Position numbers and translations under genes: made by a program. From a virus (taxonomy: Duplodnaviria > Heunggongvirae > Uroviricota > Caudoviricetes), in the IMG/VR virus record IMGVR_UViG_3300029743_000281: a DNA stretch of 64,000 nt, one strand, 5' to 3'. This document shows, piece by piece, positions 4,599-57,016 of this stretch (position 1 is the first letter of the stretch; each line of letters begins with the position of its first letter). The notes beneath the pieces were generated by a model. The model did no database searches. It was not told the origin of the DNA and saw only the letters and a program-made list of their open reading frames with translations.

Positions 4599-4599
4599 A

Positions 4600-7914: not shown

Positions 7915-7926
7915 GTACTTTTCTCC

Positions 7927-8868
7927 TTATTGCCATTTGGGGTCGTTCAGGACCTTCTGCTGTTCATCATTGTATTTTTTTCGTCCGGAGTGGAGCAAGC
8001 CCATCTGAATCATGGTCTGCACATGCTCGAACTGTTCTCTGCTGACAATGCCTTCATGATGGTCCTCCAGATGAACTTGGGCGCGTTCTCCCCTGTTCCG
8101 CTTGCTGTATCGGTGGCCGTTCTTGCCGTAGGCCGTGTAGTAGCAATCCGTCCAGTAATCCCCCATGTATGCGACATTTTTCAGCATATTGGGTAGCCGA
8201 TTTCGATTCTGAGACCATGACACACCGGTATTTTCCTCATCCTCCATCTTATCCAAGCAAGCTCGGATATCTGCGTAGCAGACTCCTTTTGCCGCTTGGT
8301 CAAAGGCATAGCGGACACGGCGGGCCTCGGATTCTTCAATTCTCCATTCACCCTGCTTGTTGACCCTGCGAAAGCCGTAGGTCACACGGCCGGTCGGAAT
8401 GCCCTGGTCATGGAGATAGGCGATGCCTGCTCGAACATTCTCACCGATGCTCTTGGACTCCTCCTCGGCAATGATGGCAAGGATGTGGAAGAACAGCTCG
8501 CTCTGACCATCCATCGTGTTAATGCCCTCTTTTTCAAAAATGACCGGGATGCCCAGCTCTTTCAGCTGACGCACCACGGTCACACAGTCAAGCATATTTC
8601 GGGAGAAACGGGAGATGGACTTGGTGTAGATGACATCGATCTTGCCATCCACACAGTCCTGAATCATCTGTCGGAATTCCGGCCGACGCTGCGTACTGCG
8701 TCCGCTGCCCTCATCCGCATAAACCTTTACGAGTTCTTCATCGGGGTTATTGGAGAGCAGCTCCGTGAAGTAGCTTTTCTGAATCTCATAGGAGCCTTCC
8801 TGACACTCCATACCGGTGCTGACTCGGCAATAAGCCGCCGCCCTTTTGCGTTTCACTACGATTTCCAT
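7927..8868 (-). CDS. Large serine recombinase 4 (start trimmed to MEIVVKRKRAAAYCRVST)
   Basis: 'AAYCRVSTGMECQE...SISRFSRN'. RBS GGAGGATGACGCA before the internal ATG. Upstream TTGCTA-17-CATTAT promoter-like at ~8905-8935. Confidence 0.8.
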   Translation of the reverse strand: MEIVVKRKRAAAYCRVSTGMECQEGSYEIQKSYFTELLSNNPDEELVKVYADEGSGRSTQRRPEFRQMIQDCVDGKIDVIYTKSISRFSRNMLDCVTVVRQLKELGIPVIFEKEGINTMDGQSELFFHILAIIAEEESKSIGENVRAGIAYLHDQGIPTGRVTYGFRRVNKQGEWRIEESEARRVRYAFDQAAKGVCYADIRACLDKMEDEENTGVSWSQNRNRLPNMLKNVAYMGDYWTDCYYTAYGKNGHRYSKRNRGERAQVHLEDHHEGIVSREQFEHVQTMIQMGLLHSGRKKYNDEQQKVLNDPKWQ

Positions 8869-8984
8869 TGCGTCATCCTCCTTTGGGGTAGTCGTATAAT
8901 GCCGCATGTACGGCTGAATAGCAAGTTCTGTCGCCCAGATAAATCGGCATATTACCGACAAACTATCTGCCTGACAGAACGGCT

Positions 8985-9025
8985 GAAATGCAGCAGATGC
9001 GACAAATGTAAAGGGCTTCCCGGTC
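8985..9025 (-). terminator. Intrinsic terminator after the lysis operon
   Basis: Perfect 9-bp stem GGGCTTCCC-N9-GGGAAGCCC followed by TTTACATTTGT on the minus strand. Confidence 0.5.
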
Positions 9026-9110
9026 AAATTGGGAAGCCCAGAGTGCGACGTTTGAATCAGCCCGGTCTATGTGCCAGAGAGTGCTTTTGTGTCATCGCAA
9101 CGAGGTGATA

Positions 9111-10583
9111 TTAGACCTTCTTGACGTAATCGAGGCTGATCCAGCCGTTACGCTTGCTGGCATAGGATTTCAGCAAGCCCCACTTGGATGCGCCCTTGCC
9201 TGTTGCCTCCGCAACAATGGTGAACACACCCTTGCCAGTAAAACCACGGGAACCGTAGTTCGTGCCGGGGCCTTTGCGGATACGTAGGCAGTTAGTGGAC
9301 ACCCGAACCGTGTAAGGCTGGAAGGTAGTGCCGGTGGGATAGACAACCCTGCCATCCTCAGCGAACACAAAATAACCGGGATTCTTATCCGCACATGCCT
9401 TTGCGTTACCAAGGTCACGGAACGCACCCTTCTGGGATGCGGCATCCGACCAGTTCTTGCGCACACGGTACAAGGCCGTAGTGGGCGTAGTGGCTACCGC
9501 CGCATCGTACTGGGTCAGGTTCCACTGCTCAATGACCCGGCAAAGGTTCTGTACATAGTCAAGGCTCGTCGCATAACCGCCGTCCTTGATGATCTGCACG
9601 GCTTTCTTGTAGTCAGTGCAGCCTGCCAGTCCTTCGTACCGCTTTTGGCTGCCGTTCATAGCCCCCAGCAGGTAAGCGGAATGGTCGTTGATAGAGTCCT
9701 CAATGGAACTGTACTTTCGGAAGTCTGCCGTAATGCTCACATAGCTGCCGTCCGTGTTCTGCTCCCCGGTTTTCATCGAATACACGGAATGCCCATCCCA
9801 GGCAGAACCCGACCAGGTATTCCCGGAAAGCGATGCCTTCATGCCAAAACAGTTATTGGCATTCTGTGCCAGCTCAGACTTGCCGTAGCCGGATTCCAGA
9901 ATGAACTGCGCCATGGACACGCTGGCAAGGATGCCAGATTGCTTCTGGTTAGCCATGAACATCGGTGCCACCTTTGCCACGACAGCCGCAGGCTCCATGT
10001 CCTTCAAAGAGGTTGCCTGCAAACCAGTGGACACAGCCGGAGTGCCGAGTGCCGCTGTCACCTTGGCAGCCAGATCACCAAGGCGGCTGTACAGCCAGTC
10101 GCCAGGGCAGGCTTTGTTCGCATACCAGCGGTGGACGGTCAACACCATCTCATCCGGTGCCGGCGCATAGTTCAGCGTCTTGTTCTTGTCCCCCAGCCAG
10201 AGCAGCTTCACCTTACCATTTCGCTTGCAGATATCGGTGCAAAGCTCGATCAGCGAAGTGTACACGGCACTGTTCATAGCATAAGGGTGGGTCAGGTCGC
10301 TGGCGCACTCGATAGTGATAGCCCGCTGGTCGTTTGCCGCACTGGAAGTACACCAGCTCCGGTTCTTCTCCTCGACACAAAGCGACACACGACCGTCCTT
10401 GCCGATGCCGTAGTTACAGCTTGCCTGCCGCGAGGTGCTGATGAAACAGCCACAAATGCTCTCGGCAGAGAGCTGACCCACCACACAGTGCGGGGTGATA
10501 CGGTCGATGCTGTGTGTCCGCAAGCCGGAATGGTTCGGGCTGAGGTTCGTATAAGCCACTAAGGGGCTGTTAGTGTATGCCAT
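9111..10583 (-). CDS. Bifunctional endolysin: N-acetylmuramoyl-L-alanine amidase plus glucosaminidase plus C-terminal SH3-like wall-binding module
   Basis: Amidase_2/PGRP-like 'NYGIGKDGRV...', glucosaminidase 'FILESGYGKSELAQNANNCFGMKA', C-terminal SH3-like. RBS GGAGGAATCTTCT then ATG. Confidence 0.85.
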   Translation of the reverse strand: MAYTNSPLVAYTNLSPNHSGLRTHSIDRITPHCVVGQLSAESICGCFISTSRQASCNYGIGKDGRVSLCVEEKNRSWCTSSAANDQRAITIECASDLTHPYAMNSAVYTSLIELCTDICKRNGKVKLLWLGDKNKTLNYAPAPDEMVLTVHRWYANKACPGDWLYSRLGDLAAKVTAALGTPAVSTGLQATSLKDMEPAAVVAKVAPMFMANQKQSGILASVSMAQFILESGYGKSELAQNANNCFGMKASLSGNTWSGSAWDGHSVYSMKTGEQNTDGSYVSITADFRKYSSIEDSINDHSAYLLGAMNGSQKRYEGLAGCTDYKKAVQIIKDGGYATSLDYVQNLCRVIEQWNLTQYDAAVATTPTTALYRVRKNWSDAASQKGAFRDLGNAKACADKNPGYFVFAEDGRVVYPTGTTFQPYTVRVSTNCLRIRKGPGTNYGSRGFTGKGVFTIVAEATGKGASKWGLLKSYASKRNGWISLDYVKKV

Positions 10584-10651
10584 AGAAGATTCCTCCAATA
10601 GAAAAAAGCCCGGATTTCTCCGGGCCCAGATAGTGTAGATTCGATTCTTGA

Positions 10652-16977: not shown

Positions 16978-19900
16978 TTAGTTTTGCGGCAGTACACATA
17001 TTGCCATATTTCTAAAAGCAACATCTGCTATCTGCATATATCCTTCAATTGCCGGATGAACACCATTCGTTCCGACTGCCTCGGTAATCTTATTCCTTGT
17101 GTTAACCTGTTTGCTCGTTGCTGGCATATTGTATTCGCTATCAAACTGTGTGGCAACGTTCAAAAACTCCACATAATTCTTAAACTCTTCATCATTTGCC
17201 AAAGACTGATATGCCAAATTCATTCCCATTACGCTCCTACTAAGTGCATAGGGATTAGAATATGCACTATTCGCGCCATAGTTAGCTCCAGTTCCTCCAT
17301 TGAAAGACGGCATTTGAATTCCCATTACCTTTACCTTCGCTTCAGGGAATTCATCATGCAGTTTTCTAATGAACTCTTTCGCATTTTCTACATGAATTTT
17401 GACTGTATAAGCATCGGGTGTAGAGCAATATCCGCCAAGAGCATTCCAGCTGAGCAAGGTATAGACAAAATCTATCCCTGCAAAGCCATTTCTTTCACAA
17501 TATGATTTAAAGCTGATCTTATCTTGCACAGCATCCCAAAACGGATTACCTTCAGCATAACCTGTACTCGTAAAGGCGATTGCTTCCGGGTGAGTCGCAT
17601 TTGACAAATGAGTTAAGTTCCCTCCCCCCACAGGCATTTTACCTGTGTGGTTCTGAAACCTGGTAAACTTAATTCTTTTCTTCTCAATCGTCTCCATTTG
17701 CCAGACATTTCCATTTTCATCACGCCAGAGACTGTGTTGGTCCGTATTGTCTTTGTCATGTGTCGAATACACCCACATTCCGAGACTTGTGTTTGATGGT
17801 TTGGCAAGGTAACTAGCCCAAGTCCAGCCACCATAACCTTCGTAGCCTATTTGGCCTCTTTTCTTTGTTCCAATTAACTCAATATTGTTTCTACCCAGAC
17901 CGCTTGGCGAACCACCCGTTTCGAGGACACGTCTTGCCAATTCAACACACCACTCACCACCTGTCGTCAAGCTGTCCCCTATACATAGAATATTTTTCTT
18001 TTCTATCGGGCTCTGCCCTGCTTTTCTGATAGCAAGAGTAGTCGTTGCAGAGGCAATAATTCGGTCACTGCAATCTCGAACATTCAGCGTCAATTTATGT
18101 TCACCCTCTTGATCAGCTTTAGGTGTCACTTCAAAATAGCGATTTGTATTTTTTCCGATATCACAAATGCACTCCAAATTAAAGTTATATGGATTTGGAT
18201 GTTCTACAATGCCACGGTAGAAAAGTTGCAGTGTATCATCAACAACGCCATATATCTTGTCTGGCAGAACTACTCTCGGAGGAGTTTCAATGTTCAGCTT
18301 TTCAATTTTCTCATCAAAGCCCTGTTTAACACTCGAAATGGTTTCATCGATTGCAAGTTGCTTGATTGCTGCATCAATTCTCTGCTGGACATTTTCGCTT
18401 TGAGGATTGCTCAGTTGGGCTTTATCCAAGAGGTTTTCTACTACCTCAATGACTTGATCAAGCTGATGCTTCCTCAGTTGATATATACTCTCCAGGTACT
18501 CAACAAACATATCAAGTCTATCCTGATTGATCAGCTCTGTATCATGAATTGGAAACCAGTCTTTCAGTTCTTTGTCAACTCTGAACGGTCCATCTCCTGC
18601 CTGACATGTGTAACAGACTGCGCCGTAATCAGGAGGATTAAGATTCTTGCCTGTATTGCCAAACATAACACTAATATGCTGATCACAGGTAAACCCCGCA
18701 TAAAGTTCTACTGAATTCTCATTTTCAATGGGTGTTGAAAAACGAAACTCAATCTTTCTTCTCTCACCAGATTTGATATGGAAACCTTCTCTTGTTTCGT
18801 CTGCAAGAATAGCCCCCTTATGATTGTTTACAGAAACCACACAGCGTATTTTTTCAATATAGGCATTGTTTTCTTTGCGATTTTCTATCGTAAAAACTAG
18901 AGTGTTGAAATGCTTGGCTTTCCCAATTGGAGCTGCCCAACCAGTAAAGGTTGAAGTTGTATAACTCAAAACAGCATAGGATACAGGCACAAGATTTTGC
19001 TCATCCGATACAGCCCATGAATCCTGAAATGAGTTTTTCAGCTTTGCCAAGCTTTCTTTTATATTTTTCTCAACTTCTCGCCACTTTGCTTTATTCGGAT
19101 TATAGCCGGTCAGCCATACAGCCAAATTGTAACGTCCCCCCGTTGAACAATCTTCCATTTTGGCAAACTGACCGTTCGTGGTATACAAACTACCCGAAGT
19201 TGCTTCTTGACTACCAAACACGTTTGTGCAAATCACATCCGCTTGTAGAAGGATGAAGACTTTTCTTCCTTGTTCAAAGAACAACCCATTCACATCACAG
19301 TGAACACGTTTTTCATCGTTAGGCTCAATTGTGACATTGAGGTACTTGTTAAAGGAGATTTTCTCTTCACTAGCATCATCGAATGCTATTGCAACACGAA
19401 TTTGATTGATTCTTTCACTACGTGCCTTGACGATAAATTCAATTCCTGTTACAAGAATACTTTCGTCGATCAAATACGAGGAAACCCAGCCGCTAAAGGT
19501 CGATGAATCATATGGATAGTACAATTCTCCTCCGTGGATTTTCTTTACTTCTGTTTCTAAAAGCTCCTGAACATACTTTTCAGCCAGTTGTTCATGCACA
19601 GCCTCCCGCATCTCACCGGCTCTCAGAGCTCGTATCGCATTTCCAAGAGTATTATGCGTATGACCATACGAATCAACACGAGCATCCAGAATCTCCGCAT
19701 CCGAGGTCTTTCCCCCGGCAATGCTGTCCATCCGTTTGTTCAACGTATCCTTGGCATCCTTCAGTTCCTGCCGGCCGGTGTTCAGGTCGGACTTGGCCTG
19801 TTCGACCTTGCCGGTCAACTCTGAACTGGTCTGTTCCAGATTCTCATTGACTCGCTGTTCTGTTTCCGACAACTCCTGACTGATTGCCTTGTGCGTATCA

Positions 19901-20220
19901 TCCAGTTCCTTGCTGATCGCCGTATGGGTCTCCTTGAACTCCTGACTCATGGCATTTTTGACTGCCGTAACATCACTGTGCATCTGCTGGACATCCACGT
20001 CCACGTCCTGTTCCAGCTTCCGCATCTGTGCGGAATAATGGGCACACAGCGACCAGTAACTCTCATCTGCCAGCGAGATGCCCACAGGCACAGCCTTACG
20101 GCTGATATAGCTGTCACCGGTCTCGCCGTCCAGTACGATCATCAAGGGTTCATAGGTTTTCTTCTGATCCCAGACACCTACATGGTCCGGTACCACCCGT
20201 TTGCCAACAAACTCTCCCAT
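16978..20220 (-). CDS. Tail fibre/receptor-binding protein paralog C (1080 aa) with C-terminal SGNH hydrolase domain
   Basis: Same N-terminus MGEFVGKRVVPDHVG. 'ILCIGDSLTTGG...GVHPAIEGY'. Confidence 0.8.
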   Translation of the reverse strand: MGEFVGKRVVPDHVGVWDQKKTYEPLMIVLDGETGDSYISRKAVPVGISLADESYWSLCAHYSAQMRKLEQDVDVDVQQMHSDVTAVKNAMSQEFKETHTAISKELDDTHKAISQELSETEQRVNENLEQTSSELTGKVEQAKSDLNTGRQELKDAKDTLNKRMDSIAGGKTSDAEILDARVDSYGHTHNTLGNAIRALRAGEMREAVHEQLAEKYVQELLETEVKKIHGGELYYPYDSSTFSGWVSSYLIDESILVTGIEFIVKARSERINQIRVAIAFDDASEEKISFNKYLNVTIEPNDEKRVHCDVNGLFFEQGRKVFILLQADVICTNVFGSQEATSGSLYTTNGQFAKMEDCSTGGRYNLAVWLTGYNPNKAKWREVEKNIKESLAKLKNSFQDSWAVSDEQNLVPVSYAVLSYTTSTFTGWAAPIGKAKHFNTLVFTIENRKENNAYIEKIRCVVSVNNHKGAILADETREGFHIKSGERRKIEFRFSTPIENENSVELYAGFTCDQHISVMFGNTGKNLNPPDYGAVCYTCQAGDGPFRVDKELKDWFPIHDTELINQDRLDMFVEYLESIYQLRKHQLDQVIEVVENLLDKAQLSNPQSENVQQRIDAAIKQLAIDETISSVKQGFDEKIEKLNIETPPRVVLPDKIYGVVDDTLQLFYRGIVEHPNPYNFNLECICDIGKNTNRYFEVTPKADQEGEHKLTLNVRDCSDRIIASATTTLAIRKAGQSPIEKKNILCIGDSLTTGGEWCVELARRVLETGGSPSGLGRNNIELIGTKKRGQIGYEGYGGWTWASYLAKPSNTSLGMWVYSTHDKDNTDQHSLWRDENGNVWQMETIEKKRIKFTRFQNHTGKMPVGGGNLTHLSNATHPEAIAFTSTGYAEGNPFWDAVQDKISFKSYCERNGFAGIDFVYTLLSWNALGGYCSTPDAYTVKIHVENAKEFIRKLHDEFPEAKVKVMGIQMPSFNGGTGANYGANSAYSNPYALSRSVMGMNLAYQSLANDEEFKNYVEFLNVATQFDSEYNMPATSKQVNTRNKITEAVGTNGVHPAIEGYMQIADVAFRNMAICVLPQN

Positions 20221-23665: not shown

Positions 23666-26600
23666 TTACTTATAGACCGAATCGTCCTGGTCGATCATCT
23701 CATTGATCTTGTCAGCCACGATCTGTGCCAGTTCGTTATCGTTCCGGGCGTTGTAGCCGTTCACTGTGATGTGAACGCCACCCAGATTCGTGTTCTTTGT
23801 TGTTCCGCCGCCGGCCAGAGCAGCCTGCGGAAAATTCCAACCGCTTGTGTTCAGCCGGGGAATATTGATCTCCGGCAGGCTAAAGGAGCAGATTCCCGCC
23901 ATCCCCTGCTGAACCTTAGAGGCCATAGACCGGATCTGCTTCAGCAGACCGCCCTCGCTGGCCTTGATGCCGCCAGTCAGCAGCTTCATGAAGTCAGGCA
24001 TATAGGTGTCGGCATCTGCCAGCGGTCCTTCGTCCGGCACCGAGAAGTGCAGGAAACTGCGGATGCCGTTTGCCACGCTCTTGGCGGCATTACCGACCCA
24101 CGACACGCCTTTCTTGATGCCTCCAGCGATACCACTGACCACATCCTTGCCCCAGTTTACCGCCGAGGAAGCCACGTTCTTGACGCCGCTCCAGATAGAG
24201 GATGCCACGTTGCCGATGGCAGACGCCGCATTGGAGATGCCATTCTTAATGGCAGTCACACCATTGGAGAACACAGAAGTGACCTTATTCCAGATGTTGG
24301 TCACACCCTCCCGGAAACCATCACAGTTTTTCCAGAGAGCAGTCAGTCCCAGACCGATGCCGCCGACTGCTGCCACTGCGATACCCGCAGGACCGGCCAG
24401 ACCTGCAAGTGCTGTACCCGCCGAGGCAAGCACACCGCCAGCCGAAGAAGCGATACCAGCCAATGCACTGCCTGCACCGGCAGCAAGACCAGACACCGTT
24501 GTGCCAACAGAACCGAACAGCCCCGCAATCGCAGAACCAGCCGAGCCAGCGATACCGCCCAGCGTGGAGCCCACACTGGAGAGCAGCCCGGACAGGCTGC
24601 TGCCAACACCGCCGAGTTTTGAGAGGACACCGGTCGCCACACTGCCGAGGTTCGACAAGATGCCGGTCCCGCTGCTGCCAAGGCCGCCCAGCTTCGAGAT
24701 GACACCGGTGATCCCTTGTCCCAGACCACCCATCTTAGAGGTCAGCCCGGAGATCAGGTTTCCGAAGTTCGAGACGATCTGTCCGCCATCGGCGTTGCCG
24801 ATCTTCGACAGGAAACCACCCATCTTTGTCAGCAGACCACCGCCGCCATCCGTTCCCAGTGCATTGCCGAGGTTCGTGAGCGTCTCGCCCAAGCTGCCGA
24901 AGGTACTCTTCATAGAGCCGAGCTTATCCACGATGCCGGTGACCGTGCTGACAGTATCGCCCACCTTGCTGAAGCCCTCGCCCAGTCCCTTAAGGAAATC
25001 CGAGTTGAAGGTATCACCGAGGCTGTGGATTGCATTGCCCAGAGAACTGGTCTGGTCGCTCAAGTCTCCGATGGAGGTCTTCATGTCGGAGAACCCCTGC
25101 TTCACCTCATCGCTCATGCTGCTGACCGATGTTTTGGTGATCTTTTCAAGGTCACTCCAGACAGACTTAAACTCGCTGGACATGCCTTCCAGACCGTTCA
25201 TAAGCCCAGTTCGGATGTCGGATGCCAGTCCGCTTGCAGCAGACCGTACTCTGTTGGTGCTGCCAGTGATCGTTGAAGCAAATCCGCTCACCACAGACCT
25301 CACCTTATCGCTCATGTCTCCCACGGGCGTGTTCAGGTTGGTTTTCATGGAGCCGGACAGGGTCTTGACTGCCTTGACGACCTTGCCTTGATTCTTCTTG
25401 ATACCACTCGCCAGCAGCTTCATGAAGTCCGGCATATACTCATCCGCATCGGACAAAGGACCGGTATCAGGCACAGAGAAATGCAGCAGACTTCTGACCT
25501 TACTTGCCACATTCTCTGCGGCCCGGACGACCGATCCTGCCGCCGCACGAACACCGGCCGCCATCTGGGAGCAGATGTCACTGCCCCAGCTGTATGCCGA
25601 AGAAGCAATGGAGCTGAGAGAGTTGAAGCTGTTCTTGATGCCGGACACACCGGAAGAAACCGTGGAGCGCAGATTGGACATAGCGCCGGACACCGCCGAC
25701 TGCACACTGGAAAAGGTGGAGCTGGTCGTGGATTTCACACCGTTCCAGCCCGTTGATACCGTGGACTTCACAGAGTTCACAGCCGAAGATGCCGTGCTGC
25801 GGATGGTATTCCAGCTAGAACTGAGTACCGACTGGATGCTCGACCAACTGCTGCTGGTCAGGCTGCGGAGATTGTTCCAGCCAGCCGTGACTGCGCTCTT
25901 GACCGCATTGACTGAGCTGGTGGTTGCACTCTTGATGCTGTTCCAGCTCGTATTCAGCACGGTCTGGATGGAATTCCAACTGGACGTTGTCAAACTGCGC
26001 AGATTCGTCCACCCGGTCGTGACGGAAGTTTTCACTGCGTTGACCGAGGCTGTCGTTGCGCTCTTGATGCTGTTCCAGCTTGTGTTCAGTGCCGTCTGGA
26101 TGGAACTCCAACTGGATGTTGTCAACGTGCGCAGGTTAGTCCAGCCATTGGTGACAACCGTTTTGACTGCACTGACCGCAGTTGTGCTTGCGGATTTGAT
26201 GGAATTCCAGCTTGCCGTCAGGCTCGACTGGATGCCGGACCAGCTGGATATTGTAAGGGTGTGGAGTTGCGTCCAGCCATTGGTGACAGCGGTTTTCACG
26301 CTGTTCAGGCTGGTTGTCACGGAAGTCGTGATGCCGGTCCATGCAGTTGCGAGGTTGGTCTTGACCGCATTCCATGCCGTAGCGGTGTCCGATGCAATAC
26401 CGGACCATGCCGCAGACATGGATGCCTTGATGCTGTCGATCTGACTCGTCACAGACTGTGCCATGCCAGTGCAGGCAGTTGATACGGAATCAGACACACC
26501 CGACCATGCGGTCTGGGCTTCTGTCTCCACGCCGGACCATGCGTTAGAGGTATCCGTTTTCATCTGGGTGGTAGAGTCGCTGGTCTTGCCGGTGATGGCA

Positions 26601-29491
26601 TCCCAGATACCACCAAAAAATCCGGAGATTCCTTCCCATGCGCTGGAAATGCCAGACTTGATACCCTCCCACGCAGTGCTTGCCGTAGACTGGATGCCTT
26701 CCCATGCCCCGGACAGTCCGGTCGCCACCGTATCGACCGCAGATGTCACACCCGACTGGATACTATCCCAAGCTGTAGAAATCGCACCCTTGATGCCATC
26801 CCATGCAGACGAGGCAGTGGACTGGATTCCCGTCCATGCAGTCGAAAGCCCAAAGCCGAGCGTCTCAACCGCGCCGGACACAAAGGAGGAGATTCCCTCC
26901 CATGCGCCGGAGATGACACCCGAAATACCCTCCCACACAGTCGATGCCGCCGACTTGATATTTTCCCAAGCTGTAGACCAGTCGCCGGAGATGACGCTCA
27001 TGACAGTCGAAATGACCGCCGAGATCGCATCCATAACCCCGCTGACCACGCCGGAGATTGCCTCCCAGACCGTAGAGAACACAGTCTGCAAGCCGGTCAG
27101 GATACCGCCGAGGAAATCGGAGATTCCACTGAAGGTGGACTGTGCGTTCTCGTCCATCTCCCCGGTTTTCCCCGTGAAGAACGAGACGATGCCGTTCCAG
27201 ATGCCCTCGAAGAAATCCTTGATCCCCGTCCAGACCCCGGTACAGAAATCCGAGATCCCGGTCCAGATGTTGGACGCGGTGGTCTGGATGCCTGTCAGGA
27301 TGCCGGAGAAGAAATCGCTGATTCCCGTCCAGATTCCTTCAAAGAATCCTTGGATGCTCTCCCAGACCGAGTTCCAGTCCGTACCGAACCAGCCGAGGAA
27401 CACATCTGCTACAGCCTTCAAGGTGTCCAGCACCGTGGAGAAGATGGACTTGATGCCGTCCCAAATTCCGGAGAAGATACCCTTGACGGCCGCCCATGCG
27501 CCGCTCCAGTTGCCCTGGAAGAGATTGGAGAACACATCGAACAGACCAATCAGCGTGTCGAGGACTGTTCCCAGTACCGTGGATACAACCTGAAAGGCAC
27601 CCTCAAACACAGGAGCCAAAACCTGACAGAAGCCGTCCCAGACAGCTTTCAGCACCTCTACGATATCCTTGAAATCAAAGCCGAGGGCATTGAGCCGCTG
27701 GGTCAGCTGGTCGCAGAAGCCGCGCACTTTTTCGACGATGCCATTCCAGATGTTAGTAATAGCTGTACGGAACTCTTCATTGGTATTCCAGAGGTGCATG
27801 AATGCAGCCACCAGCGTACCGATCACGGCAACCACTGCCATGACGGGAGCCGAAATGCCGCCGAGAGCTGCGCCCAGCTTCCCGAACAGTCCGCTTGCGC
27901 TGCCCACACGGGTGGAGAGCAGCCGGATGCCCTTAGCCAGCGAACTGAAGCCCTTTAATGCTGTGCCCGCTGTCGATATGGTTTTACCCAGCACGATAAG
28001 CAGCGGTCCAATGGCCGCAGCCAGAGCCGCCACCTTGAGGATGGTCTCTCTGGTGCTGTCGTCCATACTGTTGAGCTCGTCCACGAATGCCTGCACCGCC
28101 GACACGATTTTGCGGATGGTGGGCATCAAGAGGTCGCCAAAGGAAATAGCCAGCTCCTCCAACTGAGATTTCAGAATGGTAAGCTGGCCGTTGAGGTTAT
28201 CCTGCATGGTCTCTGCCATGCTCTCCGCAGAACCGTCACAGTTCTCAATGGCACCACGGAGCTTGTCGATGTCACCTTCGCCGGCATTCATCAGGGCAAG
28301 GAAACCGGACATAGCGTTCTTGCCGACCAGCGATTCGGCATTGGCTGCCTTTTCAGATTCGGTCAGACCGGAGAAAGCCACACGGCAGTCCGCAAGGATA
28401 TCGTTCAGGCTTCTCATACTGCCGTCCGCATTGCTGGTGGCAATCGTGACCTCTCCGATGTTCTTGCCTGCAAAGGTCACTTCACCGGCAAGGTTGTTCA
28501 TGATGGAACGCAGCGAAGTACCTGCCTGTGATGCCTTGATACCGCTGTTTGCCATGAGGCCGATAGCTTCCGCCGTATCCTCTGCACTGAAACCCAGCGC
28601 ACCGGCGATAGGCGCACAGTACTTGAAGGTCTCGCCCATCATGCTGACGTTGGTGTTTGCATTGGACGATGCCGCAGCAAGAATGTCCGCAAAGTGTCCA
28701 GAATCCGCGGCCGACAAACCAAAGGCAGTCAGCGCATCCGTGACGATATCAGAGGTAGTCGCCAAGTCCTCACCGGATGCAGCAGCAAGGTTCATGATAC
28801 CTTCGATGCCATCCAGCATATCCCCGGTCTTCCAGCCGGCCATCGCCATATATTCCATAGCGGAGGCGGCTTCGGAGGCAGAGAACTTGGTCTTGGCACC
28901 CATCTCGCGGGCTTTGGCACGGAGCTGGTCAAAGTCATCCCCTGTTGCACCGGAAATAGCAGAGACCTTGCTCATTTCCTGGTCGAAGTCTGCTGCGGTC
29001 TTTACCGCCGCTGTGCCTAAGCCAGTAACTGCCGCCGTAACCGGCAGGAACTTCTTACCCACACTTTCGACCTGAGAGCCAACCGTCTGGAGCTTTTCTC
29101 CCACCGCATCGATCTTGGCAAGGGTCACATTGGTGACCGCCGCCTGTTCCTGCAGGGATTTAAGGTTCTGCTCCGTCTCCACGATCTCACGCTGGAGTGC
29201 ATCGTACTGGTCCTGCGTGATCTTGCCATCTGCAAGCTGCTGATTGGCCTGCTCTGCCGCCGTCTTTAAGGTGGTGAGCTTCTCCTTGGTGGCTTCGATA
29301 GCCTCCTTCAGCATCCTCTGCTTCTGGGTGACAGCCTCGGTGTTGGAAGGGTCCAGTTTCAGGAGCTTGTTGACATCCTTCAGCTCAGACTGCGTTTTTT
29401 TGATGGTTTTGTTGACGCTTTCCAGTGCCTTGGATAATTTTGTAGTGTCGCCGCCGATCTCAACGGTAATGCCTGCGATTCTGGATGCCAT
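23666..29491 (-). CDS. Tail tape measure protein (~1940 aa)
   Basis: N-terminal coiled coil. Long arrays of W/T-rich ~35-aa repeats (TAWTGITTSVTTSLNSVKT...). Duplicated 'LHFSVPDxGPLxDADxYMPDFMKLL' motif. RBS GGAGGAGGTGG. Confidence 0.9.
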   Translation of the reverse strand: MASRIAGITVEIGGDTTKLSKALESVNKTIKKTQSELKDVNKLLKLDPSNTEAVTQKQRMLKEAIEATKEKLTTLKTAAEQANQQLADGKITQDQYDALQREIVETEQNLKSLQEQAAVTNVTLAKIDAVGEKLQTVGSQVESVGKKFLPVTAAVTGLGTAAVKTAADFDQEMSKVSAISGATGDDFDQLRAKAREMGAKTKFSASEAASAMEYMAMAGWKTGDMLDGIEGIMNLAAASGEDLATTSDIVTDALTAFGLSAADSGHFADILAAASSNANTNVSMMGETFKYCAPIAGALGFSAEDTAEAIGLMANSGIKASQAGTSLRSIMNNLAGEVTFAGKNIGEVTIATSNADGSMRSLNDILADCRVAFSGLTESEKAANAESLVGKNAMSGFLALMNAGEGDIDKLRGAIENCDGSAESMAETMQDNLNGQLTILKSQLEELAISFGDLLMPTIRKIVSAVQAFVDELNSMDDSTRETILKVAALAAAIGPLLIVLGKTISTAGTALKGFSSLAKGIRLLSTRVGSASGLFGKLGAALGGISAPVMAVVAVIGTLVAAFMHLWNTNEEFRTAITNIWNGIVEKVRGFCDQLTQRLNALGFDFKDIVEVLKAVWDGFCQVLAPVFEGAFQVVSTVLGTVLDTLIGLFDVFSNLFQGNWSGAWAAVKGIFSGIWDGIKSIFSTVLDTLKAVADVFLGWFGTDWNSVWESIQGFFEGIWTGISDFFSGILTGIQTTASNIWTGISDFCTGVWTGIKDFFEGIWNGIVSFFTGKTGEMDENAQSTFSGISDFLGGILTGLQTVFSTVWEAISGVVSGVMDAISAVISTVMSVISGDWSTAWENIKSAASTVWEGISGVISGAWEGISSFVSGAVETLGFGLSTAWTGIQSTASSAWDGIKGAISTAWDSIQSGVTSAVDTVATGLSGAWEGIQSTASTAWEGIKSGISSAWEGISGFFGGIWDAITGKTSDSTTQMKTDTSNAWSGVETEAQTAWSGVSDSVSTACTGMAQSVTSQIDSIKASMSAAWSGIASDTATAWNAVKTNLATAWTGITTSVTTSLNSVKTAVTNGWTQLHTLTISSWSGIQSSLTASWNSIKSASTTAVSAVKTVVTNGWTNLRTLTTSSWSSIQTALNTSWNSIKSATTASVNAVKTSVTTGWTNLRSLTTSSWNSIQTVLNTSWNSIKSATTSSVNAVKSAVTAGWNNLRSLTSSSWSSIQSVLSSSWNTIRSTASSAVNSVKSTVSTGWNGVKSTTSSTFSSVQSAVSGAMSNLRSTVSSGVSGIKNSFNSLSSIASSAYSWGSDICSQMAAGVRAAAGSVVRAAENVASKVRSLLHFSVPDTGPLSDADEYMPDFMKLLASGIKKNQGKVVKAVKTLSGSMKTNLNTPVGDMSDKVRSVVSGFASTITGSTNRVRSAASGLASDIRTGLMNGLEGMSSEFKSVWSDLEKITKTSVSSMSDEVKQGFSDMKTSIGDLSDQTSSLGNAIHSLGDTFNSDFLKGLGEGFSKVGDTVSTVTGIVDKLGSMKSTFGSLGETLTNLGNALGTDGGGGLLTKMGGFLSKIGNADGGQIVSNFGNLISGLTSKMGGLGQGITGVISKLGGLGSSGTGILSNLGSVATGVLSKLGGVGSSLSGLLSSVGSTLGGIAGSAGSAIAGLFGSVGTTVSGLAAGAGSALAGIASSAGGVLASAGTALAGLAGPAGIAVAAVGGIGLGLTALWKNCDGFREGVTNIWNKVTSVFSNGVTAIKNGISNAASAIGNVASSIWSGVKNVASSAVNWGKDVVSGIAGGIKKGVSWVGNAAKSVANGIRSFLHFSVPDEGPLADADTYMPDFMKLLTGGIKASEGGLLKQIRSMASKVQQGMAGICSFSLPEINIPRLNTSGWNFPQAALAGGGTTKNTNLGGVHITVNGYNARNDNELAQIVADKINEMIDQDDSVYK

Positions 29492-29539
29492 GCGGATAAC
29501 CACCTCCTCCGGGGCATAAGTAAAGACCCATCCGCACAA

Positions 29540-29729
29540 GGCGAATAGGCCGAAAGTTCTAAACTTGAAATTGCTCGTTAGTTTTTAGCATTGAAATTTC
29601 AGAAAACTCGGTTTTTCTGAAATTTCTTAATTTTTGCAATTTCAAATTATCTTGATTTTCTGAAATTTCTATGGTAAAATCTCTACAGTAATTTCATTTT
29701 CCTGCTTTTCAGGAAAGAAAGGAGCATCT
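29540..29729 (+). promoter_or_regulatory. AT-rich promoter/operator region for fic with three copies of the 8-bp palindrome GAAATTTC
   Basis: TTGATT - 17 bp (containing GAAATTTC) - TAAAAT with TG extension, giving an operator between -35 and -10. Further GAAATTTC copies at ~29590 and ~29615. Confidence 0.55.
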
Positions 29730-30875
29730 ATGAGCAATCGAGCTGGTACACTTGTCAGCAATCTGTCTGGCGATATGGCATACCAATCTTTTCGTCCTGC
29801 ACCCCTTCCTCCTTACCCTCCCATCGAGCTTAGTGGAGAATTAGTCACCAAACTTATTGATGCCAACAAAAAGCTGGCTACGCTAGATGGTCTTTCTTCA
29901 CGCATTCCGAATATGGATCTTTTTGTGTCCATGTATGTTCGGAAAGAAGCCCTTCTCTCCTCGCAAATTGAAGGTACACAATGCACACTGGATGATATTC
30001 TGAATCCTCTAATGGAGGAGAACACGAATCTGAACGTTTCCGATGTTGTCAATTACATTAAGGCAACAGAATTCGCACTGAACCGTCTCCACACCCTCCC
30101 ACTGTGCAATAGACTCATCAAAGAAACTCACGCTGTTCTCATGGAAGGGGTACGGGGGCAGGAAAAAAGCCCTGGTGAATTCCGCTATTCTCAAAACTGG
30201 ATTGGCGGTCAGGGCAGCACCATACGAAACGCTCGTTATATTCCTCCAAATCCTGATGATATGCAAACCGCCATGTCTGATTTGGAAAAATACATGAATA
30301 GCGATGACGCTCTCGATCCATTGATTCAGGCCGCTTTGATTCACTATCAGTTCGAGACAACTCACCCATTTCTGGATGGTAACGGTCGTGTTGGACGACT
30401 GCTGATCACGCTATTCTTAATGGAAAAAGGGATCTTATCTCGTCCGGCACTGTATATCTCCTACTTTTTGAAAATGAACCGCGTTGAGTATTACGACAGA
30501 ATGACTCAGGTTCGCAAAACCGGCGACTATGAACAATGGGTCATCTTTTTCCTGCAAGCACTCTCCGATTCTGCCAGCGATGCTATTCAAACCATCGACA
30601 AGCTCACAGTGCTTCACAATAAAAGCATTGCTCAGTTCGATGACCTCTCAAAACGTCAAAAGACCAATGTCCTCAAGGTGTTTAGCTATATCGAGACTAA
30701 TCCGATTATTGACATCCAGAAAACAGCGACTGCTGTTGACCTTTCCTACAACACAGTCTCTAAGATTGTCTTGCTCCTTGTTGAAAAGGGCATTCTTCAG
30801 CAGACGGACAAATCCGGAAAGGCAAAGATTTTCTCTTATCCTGAATACCTCGATATTCTTCGCAAAGACACCTGA
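29730..30875 (+). CDS. fic: Fic/Doc family protein (AMPylation-type motif HPFxDGNGR)
   Basis: 'HPFLDGNGRVGRLLITLFLM' canonical Fic motif; 381 aa; local GC visibly lower than the flanks; opposite strand to the tail genes. Confidence 0.9.
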   Translation: MSNRAGTLVSNLSGDMAYQSFRPAPLPPYPPIELSGELVTKLIDANKKLATLDGLSSRIPNMDLFVSMYVRKEALLSSQIEGTQCTLDDILNPLMEENTNLNVSDVVNYIKATEFALNRLHTLPLCNRLIKETHAVLMEGVRGQEKSPGEFRYSQNWIGGQGSTIRNARYIPPNPDDMQTAMSDLEKYMNSDDALDPLIQAALIHYQFETTHPFLDGNGRVGRLLITLFLMEKGILSRPALYISYFLKMNRVEYYDRMTQVRKTGDYEQWVIFFLQALSDSASDAIQTIDKLTVLHNKSIAQFDDLSKRQKTNVLKVFSYIETNPIIDIQKTATAVDLSYNTVSKIVLLLVEKGILQQTDKSGKAKIFSYPEYLDILRKDT

Positions 30876-30884
30876 TATCACTTT

Positions 30885-30925
30885 CCCGCCCAGCACACGC
30901 TGGACGGGATTTTTCTTTATCCTCA
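30885..30925 (+). terminator. Intrinsic terminator after fic
   Basis: CCCGCCCAGC-acac-GCTGGACGGG then TTTTTCTTTAT. Confidence 0.6.
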
Positions 30926-30972
30926 CAAGCTTTCATGCTAATTTCGTAATCAATATAAGCACGAAAGCTTGG

Positions 30973-31514
30973 TTAGAACCGGTCAAAGTCAGCCTGCGAT
31001 GCCAGCTCCTGATACGGATACTCATCGTTCTGCCGCTCTGTGAACATGTCATTGACCAACCCGATGGTCAGCAAGTCGAGGTCGGCGATGCTGATACCGA
31101 GCTGCACACAGCGCAGCATGAAGAGCGGGGTGGTCATTACCCGCTCACTTTTGCGAGGTTTTTTCTTGCCTCTACCTCCGTCTGGACATTCAGACCCCAC
31201 AGTTCGATCAGCTGAGGCAGAATCTGGTAGATAGAGAAGGTATTGAAGTTTTCCAGCCACTCATCCGGGGTGTCCGGCACCTGGTCCGGATGGGCGTGCT
31301 TCGCCATAATATAGGCGATATTCTCGAACATCTCCAGACTAAACAGGTCAAGGCTGGAGCTTTCCTCATCGTTATCCCCCACGCTCTTTTCCAGAGAACG
31401 CAGGTCTTTGTAGATATCCCGGCCGAACTTAATGCGATACAGCCTCGGCACGGCTGCGCTGGCGCGGAAATCAACCTGCTGTCCATCGATCTCGATTTTC
31501 TTCGTAATAGCCAT
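30973..31514 (-). CDS. Tail assembly chaperone G-T fusion product made by programmed -1 frameshift
   Basis: The G frame ends at 31137; the overlapping -1 frame stays open to 30973. A slippery heptamer lies 20 nt before the G stop. Confidence 0.5.
31137..31514 (-). CDS. Tail assembly chaperone (gpG-like)
   Basis: 125 aa, acidic, between the major tail protein region and the TMP. Confidence 0.65.
   Translation of the reverse strand: MAITKKIEIDGQQVDFRASAAVPRLYRIKFGRDIYKDLRSLEKSVGDNDEESSSLDLFSLEMFENIAYIMAKHAHPDQVPDTPDEWLENFNTFSIYQILPQLIELWGLNVQTEVEARKNLAKVSG
31158..31164 (-). other. -1 ribosomal frameshift slippery site A_AAA_AAC (plus strand GTTTTTT)
   Basis: Codons AGA|AAA|AAC in the G frame; the shifted frame reads AAA AAA CCT. 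Confidence 0.55.
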
Positions 31515-31580: not shown

Positions 31581-32414
31581 TTACTCTGCCGGGTCGATAC
31601 TGACCAGTGCATTGCTGCCGCTGACGGTGGGCAGCTTGCCATCCCATTTCTGGATCTTCTGGTACTCGATCAGGGTATCAGACAGGCTTTCTGCAATCTT
31701 GCGGTTTGCCTCAGCCTGAGCATCTGCGGCAATGGAGGTCTTCTGTGCCTCCGCCTCGGCATTGGTGATTGCCACTTGCTTGTCGGCTTCTGCCTTTGCA
31801 ATGGCGGCCTCATTCTCGATTTTCTGCTTGTCAGCGTTCTGCTGGGCAATGGACTTCTGCTGGATGGCAGTGTTGTATGCCTCTTCAAAATCCATGTTGT
31901 TGATGACCACCTTATTGATGAACACAGCACCCTCGCCATACTTCTGGTTCAGGGACTCTGCCAGCTTCTGCTGTGCCAGCGGCTCGATCTTGGTGCGGTT
32001 GGTGACCTCATTGGGGCCAAGCTCGGCCATGGCAGACTTGATGGCAGATGCCACCAACTCGTCACCAACCAGATTCTTGGTGTCGGATACATTGGCATAC
32101 AGCCATGCACTCCTTTCGGGAAGCACCTGATAGGTCACGATCACATCTGCGGCATACACAGGAGTCTTGTCGGAGGCTTCGCCCCAGATCTGTGCCTCGA
32201 TGTGCTTGTCCTGCTGCTTGTTGGACACGGTATGGATGCTCTGGACAAACGGAATGGTGAAGTTGAGCTTGCCACTCTGGATGGTGGCCTCCTGAATCTG
32301 GCCGAAGCTGGTCTTCACGCCCGTGTAGCTGGTTGGGACGATGGTCACCGACTGGAACAGCAGGAAGGCCACAAAGATGACAGTAAACAGAGAAAATACA
32401 CGACGACTCTTCAT
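31581..32414 (-). CDS. SPFH/band-7 (stomatin/prohibitin/HflK-C-like) membrane protein
   Basis: N-terminal TM 'VFSLFTVIFVAFLLF', then an SPFH core, then a C-terminal coiled coil 'AEADKQVAITNAEAEAQK'. Confidence 0.75.
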   Translation of the reverse strand: MKSRRVFSLFTVIFVAFLLFQSVTIVPTSYTGVKTSFGQIQEATIQSGKLNFTIPFVQSIHTVSNKQQDKHIEAQIWGEASDKTPVYAADVIVTYQVLPERSAWLYANVSDTKNLVGDELVASAIKSAMAELGPNEVTNRTKIEPLAQQKLAESLNQKYGEGAVFINKVVINNMDFEEAYNTAIQQKSIAQQNADKQKIENEAAIAKAEADKQVAITNAEAEAQKTSIAADAQAEANRKIAESLSDTLIEYQKIQKWDGKLPTVSGSNALVSIDPAE

Positions 32415-38109: not shown

Positions 38110-39081
38110 ATGCTGACGATAAATCAGTTGATGCGATATCTGCGTTCCAAACATCATATTACTGTCAAAAGCAATCAGTCCCAGTCATTGCGCAACATGG
38201 GCTACTATCATGGTTTTAAAGGCTATCGGTTTATCCGAACCCCGAACCAAAGGATTGCTTTTTCTTCGTTTGATGAAGTCTCTGCTTTAAACAATTTCGA
38301 TATGAAGTTGAAAGCGTTGTTTTACCCTAAGGTCATGTTTATCGAAACTGCATTAAAGAGCTATGTGATTGAAGCCACACTTAAGGATTCTCATTCTGAG
38401 AACATCGACACAATCTTCGGTAAATCAATCACAAACTACCGTTCCTTCACTCCAGGTAGCAGAAACTATCATCAGGAATACGCAAAACGTATGTCGCTTC
38501 GTAGCAAAATCAATAGTGCTTTGCTTCGTGATTATGGAAACAAAAAGCAAACCGTCAATCATTTTTTTGACACTGACCGGTCCATACCTATTTGGGCGGC
38601 TTTTGAATCCCTGGCACTAGGTGAATTCGGAACTTTCTTTGCGTGTGCAAACGCGAATGTCAAAAAGAGTACTTCTGCAATACTTCACCTGCCCAGTCAA
38701 CTTGACGCTGATGGAAGAATTACAGAGTTCATTATTTATTCAATCAAAGACCTCCGTAATGCTGTTGCTCACAACAACACTATTTTCGACACGCGGTTCC
38801 AAACTGGTGAGATCAATCAGCGTCTTGTTGCACTTTTAGAAACCGAAATAGGCATTTCAAATCTGGATTTCAAATATATTTATTCATACGTCATACTCCT
38901 AACCTACGTTCTCAGAAAAATGGGTGAAACCAAAACATCCTGCAAGCAATTTTTGAATGCGTATATTGCCTTGACCGATGAATTGCGCACACAACTCCCG
39001 GCAAATGTCTGCAATCAAATTCTAGGCACTCAGCAACGTCCACATCTGCGCCAGCTGCAAAATTTCATTTCCAATTCGTAA
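38110..39081 (+). CDS. Abortive-infection protein, Abi_2 (AbiD/AbiF-like) family
   Basis: Low-GC, plus-strand gene inserted between portal and terminase. Layout 'FDMKLKALFYPKVMFIETALKS...NAVAHNNTIFD' typical of Abi_2. Confidence 0.75.
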   Translation: MLTINQLMRYLRSKHHITVKSNQSQSLRNMGYYHGFKGYRFIRTPNQRIAFSSFDEVSALNNFDMKLKALFYPKVMFIETALKSYVIEATLKDSHSENIDTIFGKSITNYRSFTPGSRNYHQEYAKRMSLRSKINSALLRDYGNKKQTVNHFFDTDRSIPIWAAFESLALGEFGTFFACANANVKKSTSAILHLPSQLDADGRITEFIIYSIKDLRNAVAHNNTIFDTRFQTGEINQRLVALLETEIGISNLDFKYIYSYVILLTYVLRKMGETKTSCKQFLNAYIALTDELRTQLPANVCNQILGTQQRPHLRQLQNFISNS

Positions 39082-39099: not shown

Positions 39100-39186
39100 C
39101 TTTTCTTGTGGTATAGTATAGCTATGAATTGCGGTGGTCGTCTTCGGACAACACCTTGAAAGAGCCTGATGCGTCGGGCTCTTTTT
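39100..39186 (+). ncRNA. Candidate short transcript (sRNA or micro-ORF MNCGGRLRTTP): promoter, ~60 nt, terminator
   Basis: TTGCAT-17-TATAGT at 39096-39124. Terminator AGAGCC-N9-GGCTCT then TTTTTCTTTTTG at ~39150-39186. Confidence 0.3.
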
Positions 39187-50619: not shown

Positions 50620-51429
50620 TCAGCCAGCTCCGCCCTCCAGCACAGCGATGCGACGCTCAAACTCTGCCGCCTGGTTTTCCAGTGCTCCGAGTCTCTCGGC
50701 ATCCGTCTTGGGCTTTTCCTCGGTTTCTCCGTCAAGGATCAGGTAGCGTTCCATGACATATCCGGGAATGGTGTCGTAGGTTACAGCACACCAGCCGTCT
50801 CCCTGCCCGGTCACATCCAGCCGGGTACCATTGGGAATCCATGCCAGCCGGTCTGCGGTCTTGGACGGAGCTTGACGCAGACTCAATCGCCCGCCCGTGA
50901 CGGTCGCCTTGTTTCGGGTCTCCTGCATCTTGACTTCGCTCATGTCTGTTTCCTCCTGAGTCGTTCCATAGTCGATGCCCTTCAGCCGGCCACCGTATTT
51001 CCACTTACCGAGCGTTGCATCCCGGTGGATGCTGTTGCCGTTCACCGTAGTGGAACAGTGGGTGATTTCCAGCGGACGCACCTTGGTGACGATGCCTACA
51101 TGATAGTAGTCCAGCAGATCACCGCCATCCGCCTTGTAGCGGTCCGGCAGATTGTAGCTGCTGTCTCCCGGTTTTCGGGCTTTGTAGACGATCTCACCCA
51201 CAAACAGATCAGCAGATTTGATCTCTGCAAAGTCGGTCATCTGTTTCCGGGCTGCGTAGTTACTGCCGTGGATGCCATTCCAGCCTCCACCAGCCCTGCG
51301 GACCGCACCGATGATGAGACCGATGCAGTCACAGGTGCCATCCGTGCCGCTGCCGCCGATGCGATAGTCCGGTTTCGTAGCACAGATGGCTTCGAGCTGC
51401 TCCAGAAAAGCAGCTAGTTTGATGCTCAC
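50620..51429 (-). CDS. NlpC/P60-like cysteine peptidase with C-terminal SH3b domain
   Basis: 'GTCDCIGLIIGA' resembles the NlpC/P60 Cys motif DCSGLV. 'DYYHVGIVTKV' resembles the His motif. C-terminal SH3b-like region. Confidence 0.55.
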   Translation of the reverse strand: MSIKLAAFLEQLEAICATKPDYRIGGSGTDGTCDCIGLIIGAVRRAGGGWNGIHGSNYAARKQMTDFAEIKSADLFVGEIVYKARKPGDSSYNLPDRYKADGGDLLDYYHVGIVTKVRPLEITHCSTTVNGNSIHRDATLGKWKYGGRLKGIDYGTTQEETDMSEVKMQETRNKATVTGGRLSLRQAPSKTADRLAWIPNGTRLDVTGQGDGWCAVTYDTIPGYVMERYLILDGETEEKPKTDAERLGALENQAAEFERRIAVLEGGAG

Positions 51430-53678: not shown

Positions 53679-54445
53679 ACAGCCTCCTCTCCGAGCATCT
53701 GCTCTTTGGCTTTCAGGTAGAAATCCCTTGACACTTCAAATCCGTAGCTGTCACGTCCCAGTTCTCTGGCAGCCCGGAGCGTTGCACCGCTGCCGGCGCA
53801 AGGGTCGATGACCACATCTCCGGGATCGGTAAAGATCTTGATCAGGCGTTTCAGCACGGACACCGGTTTCTGGGACGGATGGATCTTCGGATAGTCCTTG
53901 CCATCCCGTTTCCAGTCAAACCAATTGAAGATCATGTGGGACTTGCCGTCCTCGCCGACGTTGTTGAACTTCGGGAGCTTGCCCCGGTACAAGACCAGCG
54001 CATACTCCGTTGCACCCACGATCTTCATGTTGGCTTTCAAAACCTGCGGGCTGTAGTTCTTACAGAAGGTCAGCGGGATATAGTTCTTGAAGCCGTACTT
54101 CTCAGCTTCCGTGATGACCTTGGGGATCTGCTGGAACGCACAGAACACGATCATGCACGGTGCGCCCTTTTCCCCTTTCATGGGTTCTTTCTTCAGCAGC
54201 CGGTTACAGAAATGGAAATATTCTGCGATATTGAAAGTGAAGTCGGTGTTGAATGCCGCTTTCCGGGCCTTATCGCTCTCTCCATTCCGGTTATCTCCGT
54301 CCACATACCAATCCGGGCGGCTGGCGTAGAAGTCCGACCCGATGTTATACGGGATGTCGGCGATCACCAGCTGTGCCTTGGGGATGTTGTAGGACTTGAA
54401 GTTCTGGAAGTTGTTATGGAACAGGACACATCTGGGTTCAGTCAT
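53675..54445 (-). CDS. DNA N6-adenine/N4-cytosine methyltransferase (N6_N4_Mtase family)
   Basis: 'LVIADIPYN' DPPY-type motif and C-terminal 'VIDPCAGSGATL'. Confidence 0.8.
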   Translation of the reverse strand: MTEPRCVLFHNNFQNFKSYNIPKAQLVIADIPYNIGSDFYASRPDWYVDGDNRNGESDKARKAAFNTDFTFNIAEYFHFCNRLLKKEPMKGEKGAPCMIVFCAFQQIPKVITEAEKYGFKNYIPLTFCKNYSPQVLKANMKIVGATEYALVLYRGKLPKFNNVGEDGKSHMIFNWFDWKRDGKDYPKIHPSQKPVSVLKRLIKIFTDPGDVVIDPCAGSGATLRAARELGRDSYGFEVSRDFYLKAKEQMLGEEAV

Positions 54446-57013: not shown

Positions 57014-57016
57014 GGG

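Follow-up and report, generated by a model that had tools for sequence, protein, structure and literature searches.

A SoFic-type Fic gene with a phased operator array, probably a self-repressed defence cassette, in the tail module of a temperate gut phage

We analyzed a 64,000-nucleotide stretch of a Caudoviricetes virus (IMG/VR record IMGVR_UViG_3300029743_000281), hereafter the window, in which a Fic gene at positions 29730–30875 of the + strand interrupts the tail genes. By its sequence, the 381-residue product is a full-length SoFic-type class II Fic protein, and the SoFic type is an already catalogued single-gene defence system. Six phased sites related to the palindrome GAAATTTC cover the promoter, and from sequence comparison we strongly infer that the regulator binding them is most likely Fic itself, repressing its own gene. 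On balance we favor the reading that the locus is a single-gene, self-repressed defence cassette of the SoFic type, carried in a variable slot between the tail chaperone and tape measure genes of a temperate, Heliusvirales-like gut phage. What is added here is modest: the family gains an operator rule at the sequence level, and a variable cargo slot is newly pointed out.

The Fic protein and its operator array

The product of the open reading frame (ORF) includes HPFLDGNGRVGR and contains a Fic_N domain (residues 40–117, Pfam 1.8e-25) followed by a Fic domain (residues 125–230, 5.8e-22). The PADLOC model for SoFic matched residues 17–379 over model positions 5–360 of 361, i.e. at full length (5.8e-118), and phrog_5978 matched at 3e-92. 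Residues 15–380 could be aligned with the crystallised SoFic sequences (3eqx, 9tch; 3.6e-36). The catalytic motif H212-P-F-L-D-G-N-G-R-V-G-R223 is intact and conforms to the HxFx(D/E)GNGRxxR signature of Fic/Fido AMP-transferases. A first-pass annotation of this DNA had proposed searching the protein for a cognate inhibitory motif, (S/T)xxxE(G/N). It is present in this very chain, on the N-terminal side of the Fic core, as S77-S-Q-I-E81-G82, aligned to SSEIEN of SoFic, which is the arrangement of class II. Both motifs are invariant across 49 homologues. Because the inhibitory motif resides within the chain, the protein is, by its sequence, a self-inhibited class II Fic without a separate antitoxin.

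The C-terminal 80 residues align to the winged-helix domain of SoFic, through residue 380. In a poor single-sequence model, predicted helices at residues 308–323, 329–335 and 340–352 together with two short strands would fit a winged helix at approximately residues 305–375, with the recognition helix at approximately 340–352. Weak matches to a MarR PHROG and to Penicillinase_R were also obtained. The homologues returned for alignment were all at least 87% identical, which made the alignment too shallow to be useful.

A promoter scan located a Sigma-70/SigA-type promoter on the + strand at 29652–29680. It consists of TTGATT (29652–29657), 17 nt and TGgTAAAAT, in which TAAAAT occupies 29675–29680. 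The extended −10 (TG) and the same hexamers are retained in Fic homologues. The first-pass annotation had described three perfect palindromes in this region, one of them between the −35 and the extended −10 elements. The three exact copies of GAAATTTC were confirmed (29593, 29619 and 29662, the last between −35 and −10) and are the only ones in the window, but the description understated an array of six phased sites, three of them perfect and three with one mismatch. When the AT-rich 190-bp region was shuffled 5000 times with its dinucleotides preserved, three exact copies never arose (mean 0.05), and a longer repeat unit, TTTTCTGAAATTTC, is likewise present three times. Four additional sites deviate by one mismatch (29552, 29567, 29636 and 29688). 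With one mismatch allowed, seven sites therefore fall within 144 bp (29552–29695) against 0.64 expected locally, a number reached in 0 of 5000 local shuffles; the whole window holds 32 such sites, approximately the chance expectation.

Six of the seven sites, S1 to S6, are phased. Their starts are 26, 26, 17, 26 and 26 bp apart and they span the −35 element, the spacer and the start site, so that the boxes lie over the promoter of the gene as in self-repressors of the SoFic and CccR type. S1 (GAAATTGC, 7 of 8 positions, 29567–29574) has a conserved counterpart, CTAAACTTGAAATT, at the left end of many homologous cassettes. The perfect sites S2 (29593–29600) and S3 (29619–29626) form a 14+14 inverted repeat. 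S4 (GCAATTTC, 7 of 8, 29636–29643) is located just upstream of the −35 element, and the perfect site S5 (29662–29669) fills the promoter spacer and abuts the −35. S6 (GTAATTTC, 7 of 8, 29688–29695) coincides with the inferred transcription start and belongs to the best-conserved position class in homologues (−44/−40 bins).

Homologues of 47–97% identity are found in metagenome-assembled genomes and isolates labelled as many phyla. The close ones (at least 70% identity, 25 non-redundant sequences) contain 90 GAAATTTC-type sites, and 44 of the 65 successive gaps measure exactly 26 bp. Information over the 90 sites is confined to (T/A)GAAATTTC(A/T). Of 220 fetched loci, 15 contain the 26-bp pair GAAATTTC-N18-GAAATTTC, in each case no more than approximately 170 bp upstream of a Fic start; none of 120 control viral loci has it. 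These controls were IMG/VR matches to the single 14-mer TTTTCTGAAATTTC, each containing it; by itself, the 14-mer scan gave scattered single matches and was uninformative. Inter-site spacing proved a cleaner measure than exact-arm inverted-repeat spans, which were noisy owing to differing outer boundaries and gave only a broad enrichment at spans of 30–38 and 51.

Distant homologues also carry alternating half-sites, spaced by approximately 24–31 bp, that surround the −35 and −10 elements and the start, with sequences that differ: TTATTTCA(A/G)TTT, TTATTATAGTTT, TTATTATACTTT, ATTTTAGTTT, CTAAGTCCA and CTAAGAACA, with TTATTATAG and TTATTATAC also recorded. The motifs from Collinsella are among the unrelated ones and are GC-rich. 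The recognition-helix position N341 tracks the core of the site: Asn occurs with TTTCA, Lys, Arg or Val with TATAG, TATAC or TTTAG, and Ser or Thr with CTAAG. The corresponding helix starts read S-Y-N-T, T-F/Y-K/R/V-T and S-K/R-S/T-S, respectively. This correlation follows phylogeny, with few independent changes, and is only suggestive.

Two relatives are known to bind their own promoters. The dimer of CccR, a class II Fic protein with a C-terminal helix-turn-helix, represses its own promoter via AGATAATCAT-N26-ATGATAATCT near −35 and −10 (PMC9755527). The dimeric but not the monomeric form of SoFic binds the 100 bp that precede the start codon of its own gene, with the motif left unreported (bioRxiv 10.64898/2026.07.09.737422). 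In the Shewanella oneidensis SoFic promoter DNA given in Table S2 of that preprint we found that ATGTCGAT occurs five times with its orientation alternating (−137R, −107F, −68F, −57R and −28F); the best-bound fragment contains three of these copies. Among 2000 shuffles, only one reached even four copies of any 8-mer. It is four points together that favor binding by Fic's own predicted winged helix over other readings: the cassette encodes its regulator in cis, motif and protein vary together, the 26-bp pair is confined to Fic promoters, and two relatives bind their own promoters.

A global host regulator such as CodY, which would make Fic expression respond to host nutrition, is an improbable occupant of the sites. 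Three of them do resemble a CodY box (of the six matches to AATTTTCWGAAAATT in the window at up to 3 mismatches, three fall in this region and deviate at 2, 3 and 2 positions), and the cassette circulates largely in Bacillota. However, the left arm TTTTC that a CodY box needs is not conserved over the 90 sites in 25 promoters (only 30% have C at −2), the motifs in distant homologues of the same layout are unrelated, and GC-rich in Collinsella, and the 26-bp pair is restricted to the upstream regions of Fic genes. It is very improbable that the S2–S3 inverted repeat works at the RNA level instead of binding protein as DNA, with a hairpin that would terminate transcription arriving from upstream or insulate the Fic promoter from it. 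The terminator scan calls it terminator-like (14 pairs, then TTAATTTTTG) and it folds at −15.8 kcal/mol (z = −4.8), but it contains only three G-C pairs, and in homologues its arms shrink to an 8–9-bp core with unrelated 16–18-nt spacers. Moreover, S4–S6 keep the 26-bp phasing without such a hairpin, and nothing upstream is transcribed on the + strand. We give hardly any credence to a phage-encoded repressor, CI-like or other, that would wire the cassette into the lysis-lysogeny circuit. The gene lies within a prophage, and palindromic operators over a promoter are typical of phage repressors; yet GAAATTTC occurs nowhere else in the window, and the 14-mer, with up to 2 mismatches, has a single, unpaired occurrence elsewhere in it. 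A 97%-identical Fic gene with all six sites is found in a non-phage chromosomal context (L130, see below), and homologous cassettes have no common neighbours. It is this absence of the motif from the rest of the window, together with an array that moves with the gene into non-phage contexts, that makes a phage repressor unlikely.

The cassette, its mobility and the cargo slot

The leader of the Fic transcript contains a hairpin, UUUCCUG-CUUUU-CAGGAAA (29698–29716, + strand), just 5' of the Shine-Dalgarno sequence AAGGAG (29719–29724). By itself its folding energy is ordinary (z = −0.03). Compensatory changes retain the stem in 11 of 13 homologous leaders, with the variants CCUG/CAGG, CCG/CGG, CCGC/GCGG, CCAUG/CAUGG and CUGC/GCAG. 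For this comparison each sequence was folded separately, in place of pair counting, because MAFFT misplaced the gaps in the loop. The gene is followed by an intrinsic terminator (30884–30921), in which a hairpin at 30884–30909 (−19 kcal/mol, z = −6.5) precedes the U-tract AUUUUUCUUUAU; a simple terminator scan overlooked this hairpin owing to one bulge. Read on the − strand, the hairpin is followed by AAAGUGAUAUC and has no U-tract, so the terminator should act on + strand transcription only. The 97 bp between the Fic stop and the chaperone stop codon (30876–30972) contain no ORF of at least 20 residues that could encode an AS1-like antitoxin. They include a second hairpin (30926–30971, 9+4 bp, −16.2 kcal/mol, z = −5.3), and a diverged phage, L212, has a sequence similar to its inner part in the corresponding position. 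This hairpin may be part of the phage backbone rather than of the cassette. On the tail-operon strand, a weakly terminator-like hairpin with a poor U-tract is located 30 nt before the tape measure start (29525–29551, − strand, −16.6 kcal/mol, z = −4.1).

The guanine-plus-cytosine (GC) content in 300-nt windows is 0.39–0.47 over 29450–30950 and 0.52–0.58 in the flanks on both sides. The opposite-strand position between the tape measure and tail chaperone genes, where all neighbours lie on the − strand, the visibly lower GC content and the clean terminator were all described correctly in the first pass. Its reading as an independently regulated cassette is supported in that the low-GC insertion is autonomous, has a promoter and a terminator of its own and is missing from a related phage, L006 (NatCom_42228). 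Expression in the lysogen, also part of that reading, is presumed. In a blastn comparison, positions 29200–29473 of the window correspond to 3201–3474 of L006 and positions 30973–31200 to 3507–3734. Between the chaperone stop codon and the tape measure start codon, L006 has 14 nt and the window 1478 bp (29495–30972), which is the extent of the whole insertion. Its own promoter and terminator, its deviant composition and its absence from related phages are the marks of a phage moron.

The mobile core is smaller and comprises the operator array, the promoter and the Fic gene (29526–30886, + strand). This segment is 93% identical over 1361 nt to L130, a 425-kb chromosomal contig that encodes a 97%-identical Fic protein, and the nucleotide match is limited to it. 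In L130 the gene is flanked by an ATPase_2/DUF234 gene and a UDP-glucose dehydrogenase gene, and no tail genes were found at the locus. The neighbours of Fic homologues are unrelated to each other: besides those two they include an ABC transporter, a PBP5-type carboxypeptidase, an aconitase and IS605/PDDEXK transposases. Among the homologue loci, no neighbouring gene family recurs except for lineage-specific synteny in Collinsella. Judged by these sequence comparisons, the Fic cassette is mobile.

The chaperone–tape measure junction itself is variable. Eight related phages were compared. One has nothing inserted, and the other seven differ in their cargo: one encodes an HNH nuclease on the opposite strand (PADLOC HNH, 9.3e-30), one a GNAT acetyltransferase, one an HTH_3 protein together with an unknown protein, and four encode other unknown proteins. 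Pfam and PADLOC searches with five of the cargo proteins gave no matches. Four diverged IMG/VR phages likewise have a Fic gene at this junction (tape measure N-termini 56–83% and Fic 78–85% identical), each with its own terminator of similar design. In a further IMG/VR contig (3300029268_002483, L216), a 55%-identical Fic homologue (4001–5125) lies approximately 2.5 kb from a terminase large subunit that is 66% identical to that of the window; SoFic-type genes are therefore found in more than one slot of related phages. At a rearranged locus (L140, 4470–9656), two 5' fragments of a tape measure gene occur together with an 83%-identical Fic cassette and with chaperone genes in inverted orientation; it is probably a decaying relative of the window prophage that retained the Fic gene.

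The phage genome around the cassette

The window represents a temperate siphophage related to Ca. Heliusvirales, a group reported to be 97.9% temperate (PMC11283538). Four large serine recombinases (653, 404, 503 and 366 residues; 1056–9027, − strand) beside the lysis genes indicate that the phage is temperate. Three of them are in tandem (5199–9027), and the fourth (1056–3017) is set apart by an AAA_25 ATPase (3027–3998) and one unassigned ORF. The endolysin is encoded at 9111–10598, and replication and methylase genes are found at the right of the window. Nearly all long ORFs other than Fic lie on the − strand. The assembly collection has the exact Fic protein in 793 indexed blocks, with the same phage context in all contigs read.

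Next to the insertion, the tape measure protein is encoded by an ORF at 23666–29539 (− strand, probable ATG start at 29494, PHROG tape-measure matches to 3.7e-301). On the other side lies the overlapping tail chaperone pair (31137–31514 and 30973–31260, − strand; phrog_709 and phrog_3033). The promoter scan gave no − strand promoter-like site from the chaperone genes to the tape measure start, so the tape measure gene is probably expressed by read-through that crosses Fic in the antisense direction, with which the one-way Fic terminator is consistent. Between the major tail protein and chaperone genes there is an SPFH/Band 7 gene (31581–32414, − strand, Pfam 8.1e-16, phrog_200), which is missing in the NatCom relatives L006–L009 and also in L212 and L213, and present in L211 and L214. 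It looks like same-strand cargo.

Further variable regions were noted. Between the portal and terminase genes, a low-GC (0.40) insertion on the + strand (38110–39081) encodes an Abi_2/AbiD-type abortive-infection protein (Pfam 1.9e-27, PADLOC AbiD 6.8e-23) and has its own terminator (39158–39185). Among five near-identical phage contigs it is present only in L003, the contig that is identical to the window. A 1080-residue distal tail ORF of low GC content (16978–20220, − strand, 0.40–0.45) is replaced in near-identical phages by an 872-residue GDSL-lipase protein (L001) or a 1654-residue CotH protein (L002), and looks like a swapped receptor-binding module. The early region (51426–61669, − strand) encodes a MazF/PemK-like domain fused in a 236-residue protein (60959–61669), an S-adenosylmethionine synthetase (57017–58084), a ParB_N-N6/N4 methylase (54438–55706) and a 750-residue C5 methylase (51426–53678). 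These genes likely serve counter-defence or self-protection.

Proposed role and comparison with known systems

Based on the array and on the known relatives we propose the following mechanism. The two winged helices of a Fic dimer would contact neighbouring sites and repress the promoter of the Fic gene, which would keep a potentially toxic protein low in the lysogen. Infection by another phage would free Fic from self-inhibition. The released enzyme could then AMPylate a host protein (EF-Tu, by analogy with SoFic), halt translation and abort the infection. Upon prophage induction, late tail transcription would run antisense through the cassette, past the one-way terminator, and should dampen Fic expression. 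The anti-phage function, the target and the antisense silencing during induction are the weaker parts of the proposal. An extended version, in which the array stores inactive Fic dimers, late antisense transcription silences the cassette and thereby spares the phage itself, but not superinfecting phages, from an abortive toxin, and the junction is a dedicated defence-cargo slot of Heliusvirales, strikes us as rather doubtful.

The Fic protein could instead have no anti-phage role and act as a modulator of growth or translation or as an addiction-type toxin with some other benefit to prophage or host, for example by reversible AMPylation of EF-Tu or by targeting FtsZ as CccR does. We consider this unlikely, although it holds an appreciable share of the probability. 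SoFic is an efficient deAMPylase and has been proposed as an endogenous regulator of translation, and CccR acts in bacterial competition. Against a mere modulator, the SoFic family has been catalogued and validated against phage T5 (PMC12249575, PMC11514479), and phages carry SoFic and Abi2-type genes more often than most other defence systems. In addition, the same phage carries the AbiD gene as a second opposite-strand defence-type insertion, and another phage has the HNH nuclease in the very same slot. Since SoFic and Abi2 are already listed among the commonest phage-borne defence systems, the cassette joins a known kind and is no new system.

Besides the CodY-like appearance of three sites and the phylogenetic signal in the helix-to-site correlation, several points weigh against a self-repressed defence cassette. 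SoFic homologues in Streptococcus thermophilus gave minimal protection (PMC11514479), a result that also suits a modulator. The single-sequence AlphaFold model is poor (predicted local distance difference test score, pLDDT, of 41), too poor for checking the spacing of the winged helices. Identity to SoFic is only approximately 30%, and the NCBIfam equivalog model NF046030 scored 176.3 bits against a curated cut-off of 550, which makes the protein a relative of the SoFic family and not an orthologue or equivalog; its target and trigger may therefore differ from those of SoFic. Finally, the 47-residue AS1 of the E. coli Sofic system is without a counterpart here, and control of toxicity may thus differ as well.

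If the defence reading is correct, a common prophage of a widespread temperate gut phage lineage may give its host a translation-targeting abortive-infection enzyme. For the SoFic/CccR class, the comparison suggests an operator rule that was left undefined in recent work on SoFic promoter binding: lineage-specific sites of 8–10 bp in alternating orientation, approximately 26–31 bp apart, over the own promoter. The chaperone–tape measure junction is a newly noted variable cargo slot that is worth mining for defence genes.

Among characterized systems, SoFic (Shewanella oneidensis SO_4266; PDB entries 3EQX, 3ZCN and 9TCH; a PADLOC/DefenseFinder class) shares with the present protein the stand-alone gene, the N-terminal dimerisation helix region, Fic_N with SxxxE(G/N), the core HPFxDGNGRxGR, a C-terminal winged helix (predicted in the present protein) and a promoter of its own with a repeated 8-mer in alternating orientation. 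It differs in the operator (ATGTCGAT instead of GAAATTTC) and in the recognition helix (KRQT instead of SYNT), and the Fic gene described here, apart from its distance in sequence, is located inside a phage tail module. CccR from Yersinia pseudotuberculosis also places dimers on widely spaced inverted boxes over its own −35 and −10, and the centre-to-centre spacing is near half-integral helical turns in both cases (36 bp for CccR, 26 bp here). However, CccR uses two 10-bp boxes 26 bp apart, in contrast to six sites of 8–10 bp at 26-bp centres, and it is an effector secreted by the type VI secretion system that targets FtsZ, whereas nothing suggests secretion of the present protein. Sofic of E. 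coli H397 with its AS1 is another SoFic-type class II Fic, the toxicity of which needs dimerisation and the C-terminal domain (PMC12249575). There the antitoxin gene lies downstream, where the window has the terminator and the second hairpin.

In its genomic design the cassette resembles morons and defence cargo slots (P2/P4 hotspots, lambda bor/lom-type genes): it is an autonomous promoter-gene-terminator unit of deviant GC content, missing from close relatives, in a slot whose cargo varies by phage. The difference is that this slot splits the tail chaperone frameshift pair from the tape measure gene. These genes are normally adjacent, and late transcripts therefore have to cross 1.5 kb of antisense cargo.

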